This document shows positions 4,680 through 18,786 of a stretch of DNA of 52,653 nucleotides, in pieces. A program made the translations under genes and the position numbers. The notes beneath the pieces were generated by a model. The model did no database searches. It was not told where the DNA came from and worked only from the letters and a program-made list of their open reading frames with translations. The DNA is from a virus, in the UHGV virus genome UHGV-0083175, one strand, 5' to 3'. Numbering within the stretch: the stretch's first letter is position 1; the number at the start of each line of letters is the position of its first letter.

Positions 4680-4969
4680 CCTGGCCTGAAGCGTTCATAA
4701 CGGTAGGAATTGCAATGGCGGTGGCGCTGGTGGTGTATTCGATTTGCCGCTGGGGATAAAAACGGTTTGCGGGGAAAGAAGAGTTAAGTAGAATTGCTGC
4801 GGGTGCTTGAGGCTGTCTGCCTCGGGCATGCCGACGTAAGGCAGACAGAGAAAAGCCCCAGTTAACATTATGCGTCTTGCAGGACGCTTAACATTAATCT
4901 GAGGCCATATCTATGACTTGCACACTTAGATTAGCCTCTTATGCGCCGAAAGGCAAGGAGCAGCAGGCT

Positions 4970-5125
4970 ATGAAGCAGCAAAAGGCGATGCTAATCGCCC
5001 TGATCGTCATCTGTATTACCGTCGTTGTAACGGTACTGGTAACGAGGAAAGACCTCTGCGAGGTACGAATCCGAACCGGCCAGACGGAGGTCGCTGTCTT
5101 CACAGCTTACGAATCTGAGAAGTAA
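4970..5125 (+). CDS. hok: Hok/Gef-family membrane toxin (type I toxin)
   Basis: MKQQKAMLIALIVICITVVVTVLVTRKDLCEVRIRTGQTEVAVFTAYESEK is near-identical to HokD/RelF; internal Met of ORF 4913..5125. Confidence 0.85.
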   Translation: MKQQKAMLIALIVICITVVVTVLVTRKDLCEVRIRTGQTEVAVFTAYESEK

Positions 5126-9136: not shown

Positions 9137-10195
9137 ATGCTTAATACTGTAAAAATATCCAGTTGTGAGTTAATCAACGCCGACTGCCTGGAATTTATCC
9201 GGTCGTTACCCGAAAATTCTGTTGACCTGATAGTCACGGACCCGCCGTACTTTAAAGTGAAGCCTGAGGGCTGGGATAACCAGTGGAAGGGCGACGATGA
9301 TTACCTGAAGTGGCTGGACCAGTGTCTGGCGCAGTTCTGGCGGGTGCTGAAACCTGCCGGAAGTCTTTACCTGTTCTGTGGCCATCGCCTGGCATCTGAT
9401 ATCGAAATCATGATGCGTGAACGCTTCAGTGTACTGAACCATATTATCTGGGCAAAGCCGTCCGGACGCTGGAACGGGTGCAACAAGGAAAGCCTGAGGG
9501 CGTATTTCCCCGCCACAGAGCGCATTCTGTTCGCGGAACATTATCAGGGGCCGTATCGTCCGAAAGATGCCGGGTATGAGGCGAAGGGCAGGGCACTGAA
9601 ACAGCATGTGATGGCTCCGCTGATTGCTTACTTTCGTGATGCGCGTGCTGCCCTGGGGATAACGGCAAAACAGATAGTGGATGCCACAGGAAAGAAAAAC
9701 ATGGTGTCGCACTGGTTCAGTGCCAGTCAGTGGCAGCTACCGAACGAAAGCGATTATCTGAAATTACAGGCGCTGTTTGCCCGGGTGGCAGAAGAGAAGC
9801 ATCAGCGCGGTGAACTGGAAAAGCCCCACCACCAGCTGCTGGAGACGTATACTTCACTGAACCGGCAGTATGCGGAACTGCAGAGTGAATATAAGCATCT
9901 GCGGCGGTATTTTGGCGTGACGGCGCAGGTGCCGTACACGGATGTGTGGACGCATAAACCGGTGCAGTACTATCCCGGGAAACATCCGTGCGAAAAACCG
10001 GCAGAAATGCTGCAGCAGATAATCAGCGCGAGCAGTCGTCCGGGGGACCTGGTTGCAGATTTTTTCATGGGGTCGGGTTCGACAGTCAAAGCCGCGATGG
10101 CGCTGGGGCGTCGTGCAACAGGCGTTGAGCTGGAGACTGAACGTTTTGAGCAGACGGTCAGGGAAGTTCAGGATTTAGCCAGTCAGAACGGATGA
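9137..10195 (+). CDS. DNA methyltransferase (N6-adenine/N4-cytosine class, DPPY motif)
   Basis: 352 aa; DLIVTDPPYF catalytic motif near the N-terminus and a C-terminal AdoMet-binding FFMGSGST segment. Confidence 0.8.
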   Translation: MLNTVKISSCELINADCLEFIRSLPENSVDLIVTDPPYFKVKPEGWDNQWKGDDDYLKWLDQCLAQFWRVLKPAGSLYLFCGHRLASDIEIMMRERFSVLNHIIWAKPSGRWNGCNKESLRAYFPATERILFAEHYQGPYRPKDAGYEAKGRALKQHVMAPLIAYFRDARAALGITAKQIVDATGKKNMVSHWFSASQWQLPNESDYLKLQALFARVAEEKHQRGELEKPHHQLLETYTSLNRQYAELQSEYKHLRRYFGVTAQVPYTDVWTHKPVQYYPGKHPCEKPAEMLQQIISASSRPGDLVADFFMGSGSTVKAAMALGRRATGVELETERFEQTVREVQDLASQNG

Positions 10196-10235
10196 TATTG
10201 CAGGATTAGTTACGTACCGTTATTATCCTGCGCCC

Positions 10236-10310
10236 GGCCCTTTAGCTCAGTGGTGAGAGCGAGCGACTCATAATCGCCAGGTCGCTGGTTCAAATCCAGC
10301 AAGGCCACCA
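10236..10310 (+). tRNA. tRNA with CAU anticodon (ileX-like tRNA-Ile2/Met), acceptor stem one nt short
   Basis: Hand-folded cloverleaf: D-arm GCTC/GAGC, anticodon loop CTCATAA, T-arm GCTGG-TTCAAAT-CCAGC, 3' ACCA; 3' acceptor strand AAGGCC versus expected AAGGGCC. Confidence 0.55.
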
Positions 10311-10319
10311 TATCACATA

Positions 10320-10396
10320 CCGCCATTAGCTCATCGGGATAGAGCGCCAGCCTTCGAAGCTGGCTGCGCGGGGTTCGAGTCCTCGATGGCGGTCCA
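10320..10396 (+). tRNA. tRNA-Arg (anticodon UCG)
   Basis: Complete 77-nt cloverleaf: acceptor CCGCCAT/ATGGCGG, anticodon loop CTTCGAA, T-arm CGGGG-TTCGAGT-CCTCG, 3' TCCA. Confidence 0.8.
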
Positions 10397-10674
10397 TTAT
10401 CTGCATTATGCGTTGTTGGTTCTGATGAGTGAATCATTGTCTTTTGAGCAACAGGCTATCATATAAGATAGCCTCAGACTTCCTTGTTTATTCTCGCCGG
10501 ATGCTTCGTAGATATTTGCAGGCATCTGTATGCAGGGGTATTATTGCGGCATATATCATCCGGAAAAATAAAAACTACATGCTGATCCGGAGATGATAGT
10601 TACAAGTCCTCCCGGATCCCGCATATTTACTATATTTTATAGATAATTGTTCTTGTTAATATGGAGATGGATAA

Positions 10675-11103
10675 ATGTATTGCCGTGCTGTACCGGTTCT
10701 TGTTTTGATATTAGCCAGTCTGACAACTGGCTGCACAAAAGATGTATCGACAAATAATTATGATGCTTCTCTGTATCACTCAGATAAATTAATAAAGTCG
10801 CAAAATTTGAGCTCATCGGAACGTACCCCTGATGCCAGTGAAGAAATCCGGCTGTATGCCATTCAGGTCAGGAAAGCCATAGAAGAACAGTTAAAGGATG
10901 CGAGTAAGTATTCAGGAAAAGAGTGTTCACTGAGAATGTATATGGCCCCGAATGGTCTTCTGCTACAGGTTAAAAGAGAAAGCGGTGATCCCGATTTATG
11001 TCGTGAAGCGATGAATGCAGTAAAGAATGCTGATATACCATCACCACCGTCTTCAGGAGTATATAAAGCATTTAGAAATGGCGTGCTGGATTTTAAACTC
11101 TGA
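10675..11103 (+). CDS. lipoprotein with TolA C-terminal domain (TolA-III) homology
   Basis: Signal peptide with lipobox LTTGC; C-terminal ~90 aa (GKECSLRMYMAPNGLLLQVKRESGDPDLCREAM...VYKAFRNGVLDFKL) align with E. coli TolA domain III. Confidence 0.7.
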   Translation: MYCRAVPVLVLILASLTTGCTKDVSTNNYDASLYHSDKLIKSQNLSSSERTPDASEEIRLYAIQVRKAIEEQLKDASKYSGKECSLRMYMAPNGLLLQVKRESGDPDLCREAMNAVKNADIPSPPSSGVYKAFRNGVLDFKL

Positions 11104-11168
11104 CAGGGGGAGAAGATTTTCTCCTGTCCTGATGATTTTGGGGCGCTGGAAAGATATTGTGCTGTGAA

Positions 11169-11560
11169 GTGTTAAATCCCTCACAATTCAGTAAGTTGAC
11201 AGTTGCCTGTCAGACTGAGCATTTGTTAAAAAAATTTCGCATGGTGAATCCCCCTGTGCGGAGGGGCGACTGGTGAACGGTATGATCTCTTTGATGATCG
11301 TAAGCGAGAATACGCGGGTTTGGTGTCACCGGGCTGAACTCACCGGGAGGCACCCGGCACCATGCTCATGGTGATACAGAAATGCGGCTTCAGCCCCTCT
11401 CCGGAGGGGCTTTCTTATGGACAAAAAAAGCCCGCGCTGGGAGACGCGGGCGGCAAGGAATAAACAATAAAACGTGAAGTAATACTTCAACTGGCGAATA
11501 ATACCCGACAGTAATCACTCTGCGCAATAGCGCGGCCTTTTTCGAATTGCGGGCTGTAGT
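11169..11560 (+). repeat. structured repeat unit A (with 3' extension shared with unit D)
   Basis: Shares with three downstream units the blocks GTGTTAAATYCCTCACAATTCA, TTGTTAAAAAA, GCATGGTGAATCCCCCTGTGCGGAGGGG, CACCGGGAGGCACCCGGCA and a terminator hairpin. Confidence 0.8.
11239..11416 (+). ncRNA. candidate small RNA, repeat copy A
   Basis: Runs from conserved GCATGGTG to terminator GCCCCTCTCCGGAGGGGC + T-run; 5' CATGGTG can pair with 3' CACCATG; two internal hairpins. Confidence 0.35.
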
Positions 11561-11798: not shown

Positions 11799-12524
11799 AT
11801 GGATGTTGCCTGCTCTGTGGTCCTGATTCGCTATCCGATAGATATTTTTCTTGAAAAAGAAAAAGTTTCACTCGATGCCGGAAGTGTTATGCTTGTTGCC
11901 AGAAATATAAGAGGGCTTTTCTGTGCTTATGCCGACAGAGTGAAAATGGCAGATATAAGTAACAGCGTCGTCAATCAGTATCTGGAAAGGGAGTGTGAAC
12001 TGACGGAGTATACACCGACAAAAATGCCTCTTTATTTGATGTCTGATATTTACAATACGGAACTGGCGGAGGCTTTAATAACCCAGCATAGTGAATCCAG
12101 TGATACTTTGAAGGATTTCTCTGTTATAACCGCATTTTCATGTATCTCCTTATTTGCAACAGACAGGCGTCTGCCATTATTTTTGTCCGGTGCTGTAAAT
12201 AATATCAGCTGTAAAGTAAGGGCTATAATTCAGACCGACATATCGGCAGGCTGGATGCTAGGTGTGATTGCATTACAATTGCATATGAGCGAAAGCTTGT
12301 TGAAGCGAAAACTTAAGGATGAAGGTTATAGCTTTAGTCGGTTGTTGCTGGAGGAGCGAATGCGTGTTGCTGTTAATCTTGTATGTTTCCAGCGAGAGTG
12401 TGGACAAGCGATAGCGGAAAAATGTGGTTACTCAAGTAAGTCCTATTTCATTTCTGTATTTCACCAGTATTATGGTGCACCACCTGAGAGCTATGCATAT
12501 TTGCAGAAAGCAGACGTTATCTGA
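11799..12524 (+). CDS. AraC-family transcriptional regulator (moron)
   Basis: 241 aa; C-terminal double HTH (GWMLGVIALQLHMSESLLKRKLKDEGYSFSRLL...IAEKCGYSSKSYFISVFHQYYGAPPESY); AT-rich. Confidence 0.6.
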   Translation: MDVACSVVLIRYPIDIFLEKEKVSLDAGSVMLVARNIRGLFCAYADRVKMADISNSVVNQYLERECELTEYTPTKMPLYLMSDIYNTELAEALITQHSESSDTLKDFSVITAFSCISLFATDRRLPLFLSGAVNNISCKVRAIIQTDISAGWMLGVIALQLHMSESLLKRKLKDEGYSFSRLLLEERMRVAVNLVCFQRECGQAIAEKCGYSSKSYFISVFHQYYGAPPESYAYLQKADVI

Positions 12525-12892: not shown

Positions 12893-13210
12893 AACATATC
12901 CTGTATATTTATGTTGTTACATACAGGCGCTTTTAGTATCTGCCGCACGGCAGTTGTACTTTAGAATAAGATGCTTTTGTGACTGGTGGTGTTGTATCTG
13001 GGGTTAGCCAGGAGGCAGGTTCAGAGAGTCCGGTGGTAATTATGTGTATGCAGTGGTTGTTGCTGTACCGTGGGCAAGTTCTGGAACTGGCTTCGTCCAT
13101 TGTAGATGATTGTTAGCTGGATATCAGTTACCTCATGGAAATGTTAAATGACTCACAATTCGGTTGATGGACTATTGTCTGATCGATGGAAGTCTTGTAA
13201 AAACGAGCCA

Positions 13211-13377
13211 GCATAGTGAATCCCCCTGTGCGGAGGGGCGTCTGACATGGTCTCCATAGCGATGGTCACAATACGCAGATTCAGTAGTCAGGCTGAATCT
13301 ACCGGGAGGCACCCGGCACTATGCTGCTTATGGTGTATACATAGCGATCGGCCCCTCTCCGGAGGGGCTTTTTTTGT
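13211..13377 (+). ncRNA. candidate small RNA, repeat copy B
   Basis: GCATAGTG...CACTATGC long-range pairing (compensatory versus copy A), conserved hairpins, terminator GCCCCTCTCCGGAGGGGC + TTTTTTT. Confidence 0.35.
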
Positions 13378-13469
13378 GCGGGAAAAGGCTGTGTTGTTAA
13401 GTGTTAAATTCCTCACAGTTCAGATGGTTGATGCTTGCCTGTCTGAGGGGGAGTTGTTAAAAAAGTTCT

Positions 13470-13637
13470 GCATGGTGAATCCCCCTGAGCGGAGGGGCAT
13501 ATCAGCGCAGGTGTTTCTACTCTATCCTTTCTGTGCGGGTTCAGGTGCTGATACTGAACTCACCGGGAGGCACCCGGCATCATGCATATGGTTAACAGAC
13601 ACGTAGCGAAGCCCCTCTCCGGAGGGGCTTTTTTATG
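13470..13637 (+). ncRNA. candidate small RNA, repeat copy C
   Basis: GCATGGTG...CATCATGC pairing with one G-U wobble, conserved hairpins, terminator + T-run. Confidence 0.35.
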
Positions 13638-13729
13638 CAGGGAAAAGGCTGTGTTGTGAAATGTTAAATTCCTCACAATTCATGAGGTTGATGATTGTCT
13701 GATTGATGAGGAGTTTGTTAAAAAAAACG

Positions 13730-13884
13730 GCATGGTGAATCCCCCTGTGCGGAGGGGTGATATCGTATCATTTCATGTGTGGCCGACTGATATCACGGAC
13801 ATTTGTTCACCGGGAGGCACCCGGCACCTGCAGTATACAGAGATTAGGCATACATCCAGGCTCCTCATCGCAGGAGCCTTTTTA
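13730..13884 (+). ncRNA. candidate small RNA, repeat copy D
   Basis: Conserved 5' blocks; terminator replaced by compensatory variant GCTCCTCATCGCAGGAGC + TTTTT. Confidence 0.3.
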
Positions 13885-14115
13885 CATGTAAAAAAAACCG
13901 CTCCCGGGAAGAGCGGTTGGCAAGGAAGCAAGGAATAAATAACAAAACGTGAAGTAATTTATTCAGCACCCTAATAATACCTTAGAGTAATCACCTTGCG
14001 CAACTGTAAGGGCGTATTTCTTTTTTGCGGGCTGTTTTTCTGTGTGACTTTTGTGTTTCCGGAGGTCAGTCCGTGCCTTCTCTGACTCAGAACATTATCC
14101 CGGCCGGGAGGATTC

Positions 14116-16730: not shown

Positions 16731-16946
16731 ATGTACCAGATGGAAAAAATCACAACAGGTGTGTCATACACCACGTCAGCGGTGGGAACGGGCTACTGGT
16801 TCCTGCAGTTGCTGGACAGGGTTTCCCCGTCTCAGTGGGCGGCAATAGGCGTGCTGGGGAGTCTGCTGTTTGGGCTGCTGACATATCTGACGAACCTGTA
16901 TTTCAAAATTAAAGAAGACCGGCGTAAGGCGGCGCGGGGAGAGTAG
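16731..16946 (+). CDS. class II holin / pinholin (phage 21 S-like)
   Basis: [10 protein letters not shown] dual-start motif; [51 protein letters not shown] closely matches S21. Confidence 0.8.
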
Positions 16947-16949
16947 ACG

Positions 16950-17741
16950 ATGAATAAACAATACGAACTGGTTGTTAAAGGGATAAATATTTACCCGGAT
17001 AAGATTACTGTTACTGTGGCGCTGGAAACTGGTGGGTATACGTCACTGTTGTTGCCAAATGTGGTGATTGATCTTGATCGTGTTGAAGGTGCCCCGCTGG
17101 AGTTTTACGAAGCTGAGGCGAAAAAGAAGGCGAAGCAGTTTTTCATGGATATTGCTGCCGGGTTATGTGAAGGGAACGAACCGTTGCCGGAAAAGCGCCT
17201 CTGTTCAGAAGAGCGGTATACCATACAAATTAACAATGCATATAACACGATACAGTCAGAAAAAGATGATATCGAATCACGCATTGAAAAACTGGAGAAC
17301 AGCGTCGTTGAACTGAATAAAAAACTGTCGGTGCAGATCCCTTCCGAAGGTGAAAAAAAACGCCGTGATGAGCAGTTCGCGGCGTTTTACGATTATTGCC
17401 GGAAAGTGATGAGCAGAAATCTCGCAGAGTGTTTCCGTATTCAAAAAAACAGAGAGCGCTCTGCAAATAGTGAGATTCTGGATAATTTTTTAAAGGGGAC
17501 GCATCTCGCCAGTGATTGTTTCATTGCTCATTCTTTTGGTGGCTTTCATGAGGCCATCAAACATGATGTTGAGAGAAGTCCAGGTATCCTCTGTTCCATT
17601 CCCGTAAGCATCGAAATAGACACAAATACGATAACCGGTGAACTCGTTACCGCCGGAGTCGGTATATTCCGTCATGAGGGGAACGATGCCAAAGGTTCCT
17701 TTACAAAAATCGGGCCGTTCTTTCTGAAGGTAGAGCGATAG
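16950..17741 (+). CDS. hypothetical protein inserted between holin and endolysin
   Basis: 263-aa ORF starting 4 nt after the holin stop with GGGGAGAG RBS; its 3' 252 nt overlap the convergent gene. Confidence 0.5.
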   Translation: MNKQYELVVKGINIYPDKITVTVALETGGYTSLLLPNVVIDLDRVEGAPLEFYEAEAKKKAKQFFMDIAAGLCEGNEPLPEKRLCSEERYTIQINNAYNTIQSEKDDIESRIEKLENSVVELNKKLSVQIPSEGEKKRRDEQFAAFYDYCRKVMSRNLAECFRIQKNRERSANSEILDNFLKGTHLASDCFIAHSFGGFHEAIKHDVERSPGILCSIPVSIEIDTNTITGELVTAGVGIFRHEGNDAKGSFTKIGPFFLKVER

Positions 17742-18122
17742 TTTGTTAAGTACCCATCCGACAGCTCGCTCATTTTGGTTTATTTTCGTATCGCGAAACA
17801 AAAATTCGAAGCGGCCAGATGACGCATGGGTGCAACCAAATACCGGGGCGTATTCATCAACCTTTGGTGTTCCTGAAAACATGCAGTCCGTGCTCTCGAA
17901 TGCAGATGAATTGCTGTTGATCCACTTAACAAAAGAAAAAAAGGTCTGAATCGCTTGTCTGTCTGAATATTCAACAAAATCCTCAAGGTGTGTCTCGATC
18001 AGTTCCGGGTGTTTACGAAAGTCATAATATTGACCGGGACGATATTTATGAGTGGTTGTTTTATCCCATGGTTGTGCTCTGCGTCCCTGTAAACGGAGGT
18101 CTGCCGCTGGATAGATAAGCAT
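17490..18122 (-). CDS. hypothetical protein, antisense to the lysis operon
   Basis: Minus-strand ORF; start at internal Met (MLIYPAADL...) with strong AGGAGA RBS; 210 aa. Confidence 0.5.
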   Translation of the reverse strand: MLIYPAADLRLQGRRAQPWDKTTTHKYRPGQYYDFRKHPELIETHLEDFVEYSDRQAIQTFFSFVKWINSNSSAFESTDCMFSGTPKVDEYAPVFGCTHASSGRFEFLFRDTKINQNERAVGWVLNKLSLYLQKERPDFCKGTFGIVPLMTEYTDSGGNEFTGYRICVYFDAYGNGTEDTWTSLNIMFDGLMKATKRMSNETITGEMRPL

Positions 18123-18252
18123 AAGTAATCTCCTGGTGGAATGTAATCCACGATCATCCGGGGAAATTAAGAACCCGCCAGTGCCCACCACTGGTGGGGT
18201 GAAGGCTTAACATATCCAGGGATTCGGAACCGATAAATCCTGATAAATATCC

Positions 18253-18786
18253 ATGAACACCAAAATAAAATACGGCCTGTCGGCTGCCGTTCTGGCGCTG
18301 ATTGCCGCAGGGGCGCCTGCGCCTGATATTCTCGACCAGTTTCTGGATGAAAAAGAAGGTAACCACACCACGGCATACCGTGATGGTGCGGGTATCTGGA
18401 CCATTTGTCGTGGTGCCACCAGGGTGGATGGCAAACCTGTCGTCCCGGGCATGAAGTTGTCGAAGAAAAAATGCGACCAGGTTAACGCCATTGAGCGTGA
18501 TAAGGCGCTGGCATGGGTGGAGAAAAACATCCGGGTGCCACTGACCGAACCCCAGAAAGCGGGGATCGCGTCATTCTGCCCGTATAACATTGGCCCCGGT
18601 AAGTGTTTCCCGTCGACGTTTTATAAACGAATTAATGCAGGCGATCGCAGGGGAGCGTGTGAAGCGATTCGCTGGTGGATTAAGGACGGTGGCAGGGACT
18701 GCCGTATCCGCTCAAATAATTGTTATGGTCAGGTATCCCGTCGTGACCAGGAGAGCGCGCTGGCGTGCTGGGGTATCGACAGATAA
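18253..18786 (+). CDS. SAR endolysin (phage lysozyme with signal-anchor-release domain)
   Basis: N-terminal Gly/Ala-rich SAR helix GLSAAVLALIAAGA; E...D...T catalytic motif region EGNHTTAYRDGAGIWTICRG. Confidence 0.85.
   Translation: MNTKIKYGLSAAVLALIAAGAPAPDILDQFLDEKEGNHTTAYRDGAGIWTICRGATRVDGKPVVPGMKLSKKKCDQVNAIERDKALAWVEKNIRVPLTEPQKAGIASFCPYNIGPGKCFPSTFYKRINAGDRRGACEAIRWWIKDGGRDCRIRSNNCYGQVSRRDQESALACWGIDR

Follow-up and report, generated by a model that had tools for sequence, protein, structure and literature searches.

A probable mobile cassette with a protein-coding gene on each strand interrupts ydfR in the lysis region of an Escherichia coli phage genome

Introduction

In the virus genome UHGV-0083175, two long open reading frames (ORFs) of opposite orientation lie between the holin and endolysin genes, and their 3' ends overlap by 252 nucleotides (nt) with both frames open. 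The whole 52,653-nt stretch that was analysed is referred to below as the window. The question raised by this locus is whether both frames encode proteins, and how such a pair came to be placed within a late lysis operon. The analysis presented here indicates that the resident gene ydfR has probably been interrupted by an 800-bp mobile cassette both strands of which code for protein. The two genes are termed gene A, the minus-strand ORF, and gene B, which forms the end of the plus-strand ORF and lies almost entirely antisense within A.

Results

Structure of the interrupted ydfR locus

The plus-strand ORF extends from 16950 to 17741 (263 amino acids, aa; start codon ATG, as read from the sequence), while the minus-strand ORF occupies 17490 to 18122 and comprises 210 aa when counted from the ATG at 18122. 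The overlap covers 17490-17741. Within it the frames are codon-aligned, each plus codon being the reverse complement of one minus codon, and stops in one frame can therefore arise only from TTA, CTA or TCA in the other. The ATG of the plus-strand ORF is found 3 nt beyond the holin stop codon TAG (16944-16946), with the ribosome-binding site GGGGAGAG located 7 nt 5' of it, a Shine-Dalgarno sequence that was rated strong. The features of the locus are as follows:

16731..16946, plus strand: S21-type class II holin (PF04971, E = 7.2e-33; PGAP name class II holin), the upstream neighbour, in the late lysis operon
16950..17446, plus strand: ydfR', resident YdfR/DUF1327, codons 1-165 (PF07041, phrog_2091, identity to L023)
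17447..18246, unstranded: inserted cassette of 800 bp with genes A and B (BLAST breakpoints against L023/L024, drop in GC content)
17449..17464, minus strand: terminator-like hairpin followed by U7 (structure scan)
17478..17741, plus strand: predicted gene B, ~88 codons (stop avoidance, drop in synonymous divergence, identity above a recoding null)
17490..18122, minus strand: predicted gene A, 210 aa (large family without a curated match; antisense to the late operon)
17929..17936, unstranded: A8/T8 homopolymer in A codons 63-65 (length differs among genomes)
18129..18134, minus strand: Shine-Dalgarno sequence AGGAGA of gene A (6 nt before the ATG, read from the sequence)
18209..18244, minus strand: conserved element upstream of A (motif common to L018, L046 and L049)
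18253..18786, plus strand: endolysin, a phage lysozyme (PF00959, E = 7.3e-25), the downstream neighbour

The first part of the plus-strand ORF belongs to a known family. PF07041 (DUF1327) covers residues 1-96 (E = 7.5e-34; 116.3 bits versus a gathering cutoff of 25), and a match to phrog_2091 spans residues 1-168. The gene order holin-ydfR-endolysin is also that of K-12 Qin (essQ-ydfR-rrrQ), whose ydfR is b1555. Moreover, insert-free loci of the type S-ydfR-R exist (L023 and L024), and L023 consists of the holin gene S, a ydfR gene of 287 aa and then the endolysin gene R. The DNA of the window matches L023 at 98.7% identity up to nt 17446, and from nt 18247 onward the match resumes at about 93%. 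In BLAST comparisons with L023/L024 the breakpoints are 17446/17447 and 18246/18247; between them, 397 bp of the insert-free locus, encoding the ydfR C-terminal domain, have been swapped for the 800 bp of 17447-18246. The GC content of the cassette is 0.41-0.49 versus 0.55-0.58 in the flanks.

At the protein level, the long YdfR forms (287-296 aa) read NLAECF and then SIHNDN...WECNRPSFVV...LTYLKVRI, whereas the plus-strand ORF of the window reads NLAECF and then RIQKNRERSAN, diverging after residue ~165. The ORF thus resembles YdfR of K-12 Qin in residues 1-165 and in its position, the canonical slot between an S21-type holin and lysozyme, but the intact C-terminal domain of the long forms (~122 aa) is not present, its place being taken by the non-homologous B. 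The possibility that B is itself a diverged YdfR C-terminal domain was considered because of the similar endings (GPFYLKV versus GLTYLKV) and rejected at an hhalign probability of 0.2%. As judged from these alignments, the 263-aa ORF is YdfR(1-165) joined through a short linker to B. Annotation pipelines treat the region differently: PGAP labels ydfR' a pseudogene, incomplete, with its C-terminus missing, and in most RefSeq carriers annotates nothing over the next ~1 kb, neither A nor the full-length plus-strand ORF, while other pipelines call the 263-aa ORF and not A.

The coordinates and the overlap described in a sequence-only reading of this stretch were all reproduced, as was its placement of the minus-strand gene inside a foreign insert, antisense to the late lysis transcript. 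Its count of two inserted genes requires amendment: a foreign insert is indeed present between holin and endolysin, but codons 1-165 of the plus-strand ORF are resident ydfR and only the last ~88 belong to the cassette. Furthermore, its premise that the endolysin directly follows the holin does not hold as a rule for loci of the S-ydfR-R type (K-12 Qin, L023/L024).

Of 5426 complete E. coli genomes, 133 carry the sequence of gene A (17490-18122) at 99% identity or more, in up to 4 copies per genome; many of these 133 belong to Shiga-toxin producers. The locus is also present in 8 deposited Shiga toxin (Stx) phage genomes, Stx1a and Stx2a phages being among the carriers, and the exact sequences of both proteins occur on about 1000 or more public contigs. 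A sequencing artefact, such as a frameshift that would remove one of the two ORFs, is ruled out by the 133 concordant genomes.

Evidence that gene B is selected as a protein

Gene B terminates at the TAG of 17739-17741, the reverse complement of the CTA codon of A Leu128, and 83 of its codons are antisense inside A. Stop avoidance was analysed in 14 phage-borne homologs with 38-65% identity of A, taking TTA, CTA and TCA as stop-making codons, A codon 129 onward as the overlap and A codons 1-113 as the upstream region. Among all leucine and serine codons of the 14 sequences, stop-making codons account for 0/179 in the overlap versus 70/222 upstream. When each eligible alignment column is counted only once, the figures are 0/39 and 27/52, respectively (Fisher p = 4.9e-9). 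This column-based test is the fair one, since the product probability of 2e-22 is overstated by lineages that are not fully independent. The B frame is open over the last ~82 codons of A in every phage-borne lineage. Its stop is supplied by Leu127/128, except in the P0008 clade, where the frame closes at A codon 114 or 121. Upstream, codons 1-128 of A contain 5-15 stop-making codons per phage-borne lineage, and 3-4 in the GC-richer P0008 clade. The probability per lineage that the frame is open by chance (P0) ranges from below 0.0001 to 0.017 where B is intact and is 0.13 for L008. In the window alone, stop-making codons number 0/10 in the overlap versus 6/17 upstream, giving P0 = 0.017 with codon usage taken from the rest of gene A; with whole-gene or window-wide codon usage the probability is 0.08-0.25, which is unremarkable.

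Two further comparisons point in the same direction. The proportion of synonymous differences (pS) in A is 0.44-0.69 in the overlap versus 0.73-0.95 outside it, and is lower in 21 of 21 pairs drawn from seven lineages, while the proportion of nonsynonymous differences (pN) is unchanged. The identity of B between lineages is 0.34-0.66 versus 0.23-0.35 for a null in which the synonymous codons of A were redrawn (z 2.7-7.5, mean 4.4). The same recoding statistic applied to a control region, A codons 40-121, gave a mean z of -0.01, and with the deeper clades added the mean z was 2.9 in the overlap and 0.10 in the control.

Start signals are also conserved. In nine lineages an ATG accompanied by a Shine-Dalgarno sequence is located just beyond the 3' end of A, examples being AGGAGGaaaaATG, AGGAGcaccctcATG and GGAGGcaatATG, although the surrounding DNA is otherwise unrelated. 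The B proteins of these lineages are 89-100 aa in length and all carry ...GPFYL(K/E/Q)(V/I)... near the C-terminus; alignment A5 of B also includes a 107-aa form from the P0008 clade. Invariant positions of B are P37, L58, P82-F83 and L85. The length of the overlap is kept at 249-276 nt. Stops are found in the B frame of the Salmonella chromosomal copy L005, which lies beside a prophage remnant, and in 3 of 4 non-phage homologs for which DNA was available. RNAalifold of the overlap (273 columns) gave -13.8 kcal/mol with a covariation term of -1.3 and thus no convincing conserved structure; the constraint on the overlap is not explained by RNA folding. On the combined evidence of stop avoidance, lowered pS, identity above the null and start signals in nine lineages, B is judged to be a real gene, antisense inside the last ~83 codons of A and selected as a protein. 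The long 3' overlap noted in the sequence-only reading is, by the depletion of stop-making codons across the 14 homologs, a real and selected feature.

No match to B was found in Pfam or, at the sequence level, in the Protein Data Bank (PDB), and the tail of the plus-strand ORF matches neither Pfam nor PHROG entries. B ORFs are listed as hypothetical proteins in Enterobacter, Hafniaceae and Yersinia, which together with Escherichia and Salmonella places the pair in five genera. An 85-aa Enterobacter B protein bears the name "DUF1327 domain-containing protein, partial", although no B protein that was scanned matches DUF1327; the erroneous name has probably spread from the E. coli fusion.

Gene A and its family

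The Shine-Dalgarno sequence AGGAGA lies at 18129-18134, 6 nt before the ATG of gene A. A GTG-extended form would reach 18191, but Met1 is conserved among homologs, which favours the ATG. Full-length homologs (210-219 aa; 53-65% identity) have this Met1 and many invariant residues in common. A profile search returned 251 cluster representatives of the family, 183 of them at E <= 1e-10, nearly all of about 200-215 aa. Purifying selection is apparent along the whole length of A (pN 0.16-0.35 versus pS 0.44-0.99), and its AlphaFold (AF2) model reaches a predicted local distance difference test score (pLDDT) of 95.8. Full-length homologs with Met1, the 251 representatives, the confident model and pN below pS together argue that A is a real gene. 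The conserved charged residues R15, E47, D48, E76, D79, R104, E106, R110, N115 and R165 suggest an enzyme-like site.

Searches with the window protein alone and with 103 family members gave no match in Pfam, PHROGs, NCBIfam or PADLOC. In PADLOC-DB v2, neither A nor the full-length plus-strand ORF matched, and the 103 members produced three isolated matches at E about 0.008. No PDB sequence matched A. Foldseek of the model against BFVD gave template modelling (TM) scores <=0.37, and no close fold was found in the PDB. A profile scan of genome contigs with alignment A1 was likewise negative. The distant members show no conserved operon partner, being stand-alone chromosomal genes of environmental bacteria with unrelated neighbours. 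The sequence-only reading had stated that neither product matches a recognisable family. This is incorrect for the plus-strand ORF, which is a DUF1327 protein, and applies to the minus-strand ORF with regard to curated libraries only, as A belongs to a large unnamed family of 251 cluster representatives.

The A8/T8 tract at 17929-17936, which lies outside B, shows variants of +1 and -1 nt in the complete genomes L002 and L003. Such length variants, seen in several complete E. coli genomes, frameshift A and leave the plus-strand ORF untouched; copies of A of 632 bp are found among complete genomes, and public databases contain fragment proteins of 113-122 aa (P0004 and P0022) that correspond to the frameshifted alleles. 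The length change could be phase variation or a homopolymer sequencing error.

Elements at the cassette edge and upstream of A

At the left edge of the cassette, 26 nt past the stop codon of A, a terminator-like hairpin GCAGAGCGCTCTCTGT is followed by TTTTTTT. Its fold is weak, with a 6-bp local stem and a minimum free energy of -7.1 kcal/mol (z -0.83); an analogous hairpin is present at the cassette edge of L049. Upstream of A, the sequence ATCAGGAT-N22-TATGTT is found, in which TATGTT ends 86 nt before the ATG. It recurs with the same 22-nt spacing in L018, L046 and L049, with a near-match in L068, and spans about 70-95 nt upstream of the ATG of A across these loci. Outside the window, the 5' part of the element is a palindrome, CTGAT-N5-ATCAG, at the cassette end. 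The element is a candidate either for a promoter/operator or for a conserved end of the cassette.

Movement of the cassette and its insertion sites

In Enterobacterales, gene A recurs as a prophage moron; it is found at the following sites:

Window (E. coli): within ydfR, in the S-R interval; A antisense to the late operon
Salmonella P22-like prophage (L008): between Q and holin, with Kiwa adjacent; A antisense to the late genes
Salmonella chromosome (L005): adjoining a tail-gene remnant and sodC
IMG/VR contigs, more than 12: between tail genes I and J; A antisense to the late genes
Other contigs: adjoining the tape-measure gene; A antisense to the late genes
Two deeper clades (about 38% identity): next to genes taken for tail genes solely from their size and order

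In all phage contexts examined, B points in the same direction as the late operon, and A runs against it. Prophages of the Enterobacter type carry a ~786-bp cassette with diverged A and B between the tail genes I and J. At the empty I-J site of L062 (E. coli ES5), J starts 53 nt after the stop of I, and the flanks are 92-97% identical; the ~786-bp cassette of the Enterobacter-type contig sits exactly at this gap. As the empty sites of S-ydfR-R (L023) and I-J (L062) show, A and B are gained and lost jointly, as a single mobile cassette. The I-J cassette inserts directly upstream of a GC-rich hairpin followed by a T-run, AGCCACC-N4-GGTGGCT-TTTTT, which is located between I and J on the late strand in the empty site (L062, 770-795) as well as in the filled one (L049, 4865-4890).

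In related phages, the same ydfR-R slot holds other small minus-strand genes, of 86 aa and 106 aa, without a Pfam match (L004, PhiR12_1, 1726-2145; L012, 726-1046). The rightmost 70 bp of the PhiR12_1-type insert are also present in the window (18177-18246), so that the ydfR-R site seems to be one that has repeatedly received antisense cargo, with a junction in common. In L008, a Kiwa system (KwaA/KwaB, 9618-11257) is located about 3 kb from the A homolog P0003 and on the same strand, in the Q-to-holin region and opposite to the late genes.

The state of B in the window

In the window the start of B differs from that of its relatives. Where these read ATG GAT AA(C/A), the window reads CTG GAT AAT, and the B frame is continuous with ydfR codons 1-165. 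The same ydfR'-B junction recurs in frame after at least three different versions of the ydfR N-terminal part; the resulting proteins have 161, 263 and 305 aa. In the recombinant L012 (GCA_043577185.1 contig, 1-733), only the 3' 245 nt of A remain, and B is still read in frame, with the N-terminal part of YdfR on one side and the YdfR C-terminal domain on the other. The P0 of 0.017 for the window and the identity of its B to that of distant clades argue for recent or continuing constraint on this copy.

Discussion

Proposed mode of action

The arrangement is compatible with a division of the two strands between the phases of the phage life cycle. Like other antisense morons, A would be transcribed from its own promoter in the lysogen, while the late operon is silent. 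B starts no more than 30 nt from the cassette edge, which leaves no room for a promoter, so that it would be translated solely from the late transcript during lytic growth. Late transcription would then run head-on into A and yield RNA antisense to it. The cassette may thus behave as a strand-switch module, with one product made in lysogeny and the other in lytic growth, and the overlap would render the pair inseparable. Expression confined to the lysogen and a role in defence or exclusion, as put forward in the sequence-only reading, fit the anatomy, given the antisense orientation in every phage context and the Kiwa system beside a Salmonella homolog. More speculatively, and as the likeliest functional logic, A might be a prophage-expressed effector, either an exclusion/defence protein or a host-modifying enzyme, and B its late partner or antagonist.

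A stronger version, which we put forward tentatively and consider unlikely, is a strand-switch effector and antidote, in which A, made in the lysogen, would be an anti-phage or host-modifying enzyme that is harmful to the resident phage as well, and late transcription both silences A and delivers B, a small neutralising protein. On induction, A would be silenced through convergent transcription and antisense RNA. The antidote would be written inside the effector gene on the opposite strand, inseparable from it by recombination, with each product tied to one phase of the life cycle. If this were true, B would have arisen by overprinting after phage capture of a cellular gene, since 3 of 4 non-phage homologs with DNA carry stops in the B frame. 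Tight linkage and opposite expression programmes are what suggest a toxin-antitoxin or effector-immunity pair here.

Alternative explanations

Several observations weigh against two working genes in the window, and the first of them also support a relic, according to which the A/B pair is real elsewhere whereas the ydfR'::B fusion of the window is a pseudogene, open because it is recent, so that only A or nothing works. B has no start codon of its own here, with CTG at the position of the ATG of other lineages, and PGAP treats the plus-strand ORF as a pseudogene on account of the incomplete ydfR'. In comparison with its closest relatives, the Salmonella homologs P0002 and P0003, the window shows no drop in pS, and in both of these B is broken or truncated, with no nearby ATG; B may therefore be decaying in the window/Salmonella subclade. 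Selection within the lineage is not measurable, the E. coli copies being at least 99% identical. A relic does not account well, however, for the lack of stop-making codons in the overlap of the window (0/10 versus 6/17; P0 = 0.017), nor for its B identity to the I-J clade (z 2.8-6.5), which is as high as that within the I-J clade. The junction has been kept in frame behind at least three ydfR alleles, the recombinant in which A is destroyed retains B in frame on both sides, and the fusion possesses a strong Shine-Dalgarno sequence 3 nt past the holin stop. We regard a relic as doubtful. The remaining points concern the proposed mode of action: a strict sigma-70 scan found no promoter for A and the terminator hairpin is weak; frameshifts at the A8 tract in some genomes show that the host can dispense with A; that A is transcribed in lysogens and B translated is deduced from sequence; and neither protein has a functional homolog, the logic of effector and antagonist being drawn from the anatomy of the cassette.

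If the constraint acted on nucleotides, as in an antisense regulatory RNA, an mRNA-stability element or a recombination site, or if ribosomes merely had to cover the late mRNA, the amino acids of B would be irrelevant. The identity of B above the null and the drop in pS are not independent signals, and both follow from any constraint on the third positions of A, whose identity rises merely from 0.38 to 0.45; B also has no known fold or family. Such a constraint does not explain the frame-specific avoidance of exactly the three stop-making codons (0/179 versus 70/222), nor the Shine-Dalgarno sequence and ATG that have been kept independently in nine lineages with unrelated upstream DNA. Conserved RNA structure was not detected in the overlap, and ribosome cover would leave unexplained about 380 nt of antisense A and the spacer before J, which stay untranslated. 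Constraint at the nucleotide level is held to be improbable. Less credible still is a chance shadow ORF, with A as the sole gene and a codon-aligned antisense frame that is intrinsically stop-poor. This was the initial view, taken from the unremarkable probabilities of 0.08-0.25 and compatible with a plus-strand tail that has no Pfam or PHROG match, and it was dropped when the same open frame was found in every phage-borne homolog. Stop-making codons are numerous in A codons 1-128 and then cease, z is about 0 in the control region versus 4.4 in the overlap, the start signals are conserved, and the pS of 0.44-0.95 argues against a near-clonal homolog set. An interruption of ydfR by a mobile cassette coding on both strands thus remains the probable explanation.

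Comparison with known systems

Among lambdoid phages, bor of lambda is transcribed against the late genes, and the "ant moron" of P22 is another moron. The cassette resembles such morons in being discrete, absent at the same site in close relatives and lower in GC content than its flanks. It further comes with a ribosome-binding site of its own, a hairpin resembling a terminator and, upstream, a conserved element; it is oriented opposite to the late genes as is bor, and is not needed for lysis or morphogenesis. It differs from them in having a second protein-coding gene nested in the first, on the late-sense strand, and we know of no moron with such a nested second gene on the opposite strand. 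Literature searches on DUF1327, ydfR and antisense morons produced no description of the cassette or of such a moron. With regard to the definition quoted in PMC2629481, some phages carry the cassette whereas close relatives lack it at the same site (L023/L024, L062). For a promoter and terminator of its own, a weak edge hairpin and a conserved upstream element were found, and no strict sigma-70 match. Structurally, the cassette conforms to the definition of a moron quoted there.

Antisense overlapping genes have been described in E. coli O157:H7 and Pseudomonas aeruginosa, namely ano/ECs2385 (PMC5960689) and asa (PMC6294744), together with three novel overlapping genes (PMC9927249) and olg1/olg2 (PMC8850804). 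In the titles and abstracts of these four papers, the genes are called novel or evolutionarily novel, and ribosome profiling is the main evidence. The A/B pair is similar in that a longer gene contains an antisense ORF of ~250 nt, which has a Shine-Dalgarno sequence and start codon of its own and shows signs of purifying selection. A stop-free embedded frame beyond the expectation from codon usage was found, as were a start codon and Shine-Dalgarno sequence in nine lineages other than the window, and purifying selection on both frames (A: pN far below pS; B: the null and pS tests). By these comparisons the pair qualifies, at the level of sequence, as antisense overlapping genes in the sense of PMC5960689, PMC9927249 and PMC8850804. 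Unlike those genes, it is known here from comparative evidence; it is old, occurs in at least five genera and at several sites, persists where A is no more than 38-65% identical, moves as a unit and would place its strands in different phage programmes.

The comparison can be extended to prophage systems with a nested determinant. In sieB/esc of P22 and in BstA/aba, a defence or exclusion gene contains its self-immunity determinant, esc being an in-frame internal product and aba a DNA element. The likeness lies in a prophage gene at a moron position, in a nested determinant inseparable by recombination and in a nested partner placed to act in the phage's own lytic cycle. In contrast, B is on the opposite strand, and the A/B pair is known from its sequence, with no PADLOC match. 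Overall, the cassette is rated as combining known kinds, the moron and the antisense overlap, and not as a new category.

Other features of the window

Four copies of the STnc100 small RNA (RF02076, 119-172 bits) are located at 11210-11422, 13182-13377, 13441-13640 and 13702-13889. They surround the usual position of stx in Stx phages. No stx genes are present there in the window, which instead encodes an AraC-family regulator (11799-12524) along with small ORFs that bear no annotation. An ORF of 142 aa (10675-11103), immediately downstream of two tRNA genes, carries a TolA C-terminal domain (PF06519, E = 4.6e-22), an unusual cargo for that region of a lambdoid prophage. A match to the sok antitoxin RNA at 4801-4975 (RF01794, 113 bits) points to a module of the hok/sok type in the prophage.

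Significance

Whether real protein-coding genes exist as long antisense overlaps in bacteria and phages is still disputed, and the A/B pair makes the question testable. Most proposed cases are young, confined to a single lineage and founded on a ribosome-profiling signal. The evidence for A and B is purely comparative, and the pair has survived divergence to 38% identity of A, transfer among at least five enterobacterial genera and several insertion sites. Either gene can be knocked out by changes that are synonymous in the other. The locus also exposes a blind spot of annotation, in that about 1 kb is blank in most of the 133 carrier genomes and elsewhere one strand only is annotated. Two families without a name in curated libraries are thereby brought to light, that of A with hundreds of representatives, a confident model and no close solved fold. 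If the two strands do divide their expression between lysogeny and lytic growth, the cassette would represent a new way for prophages to package accessory functions.

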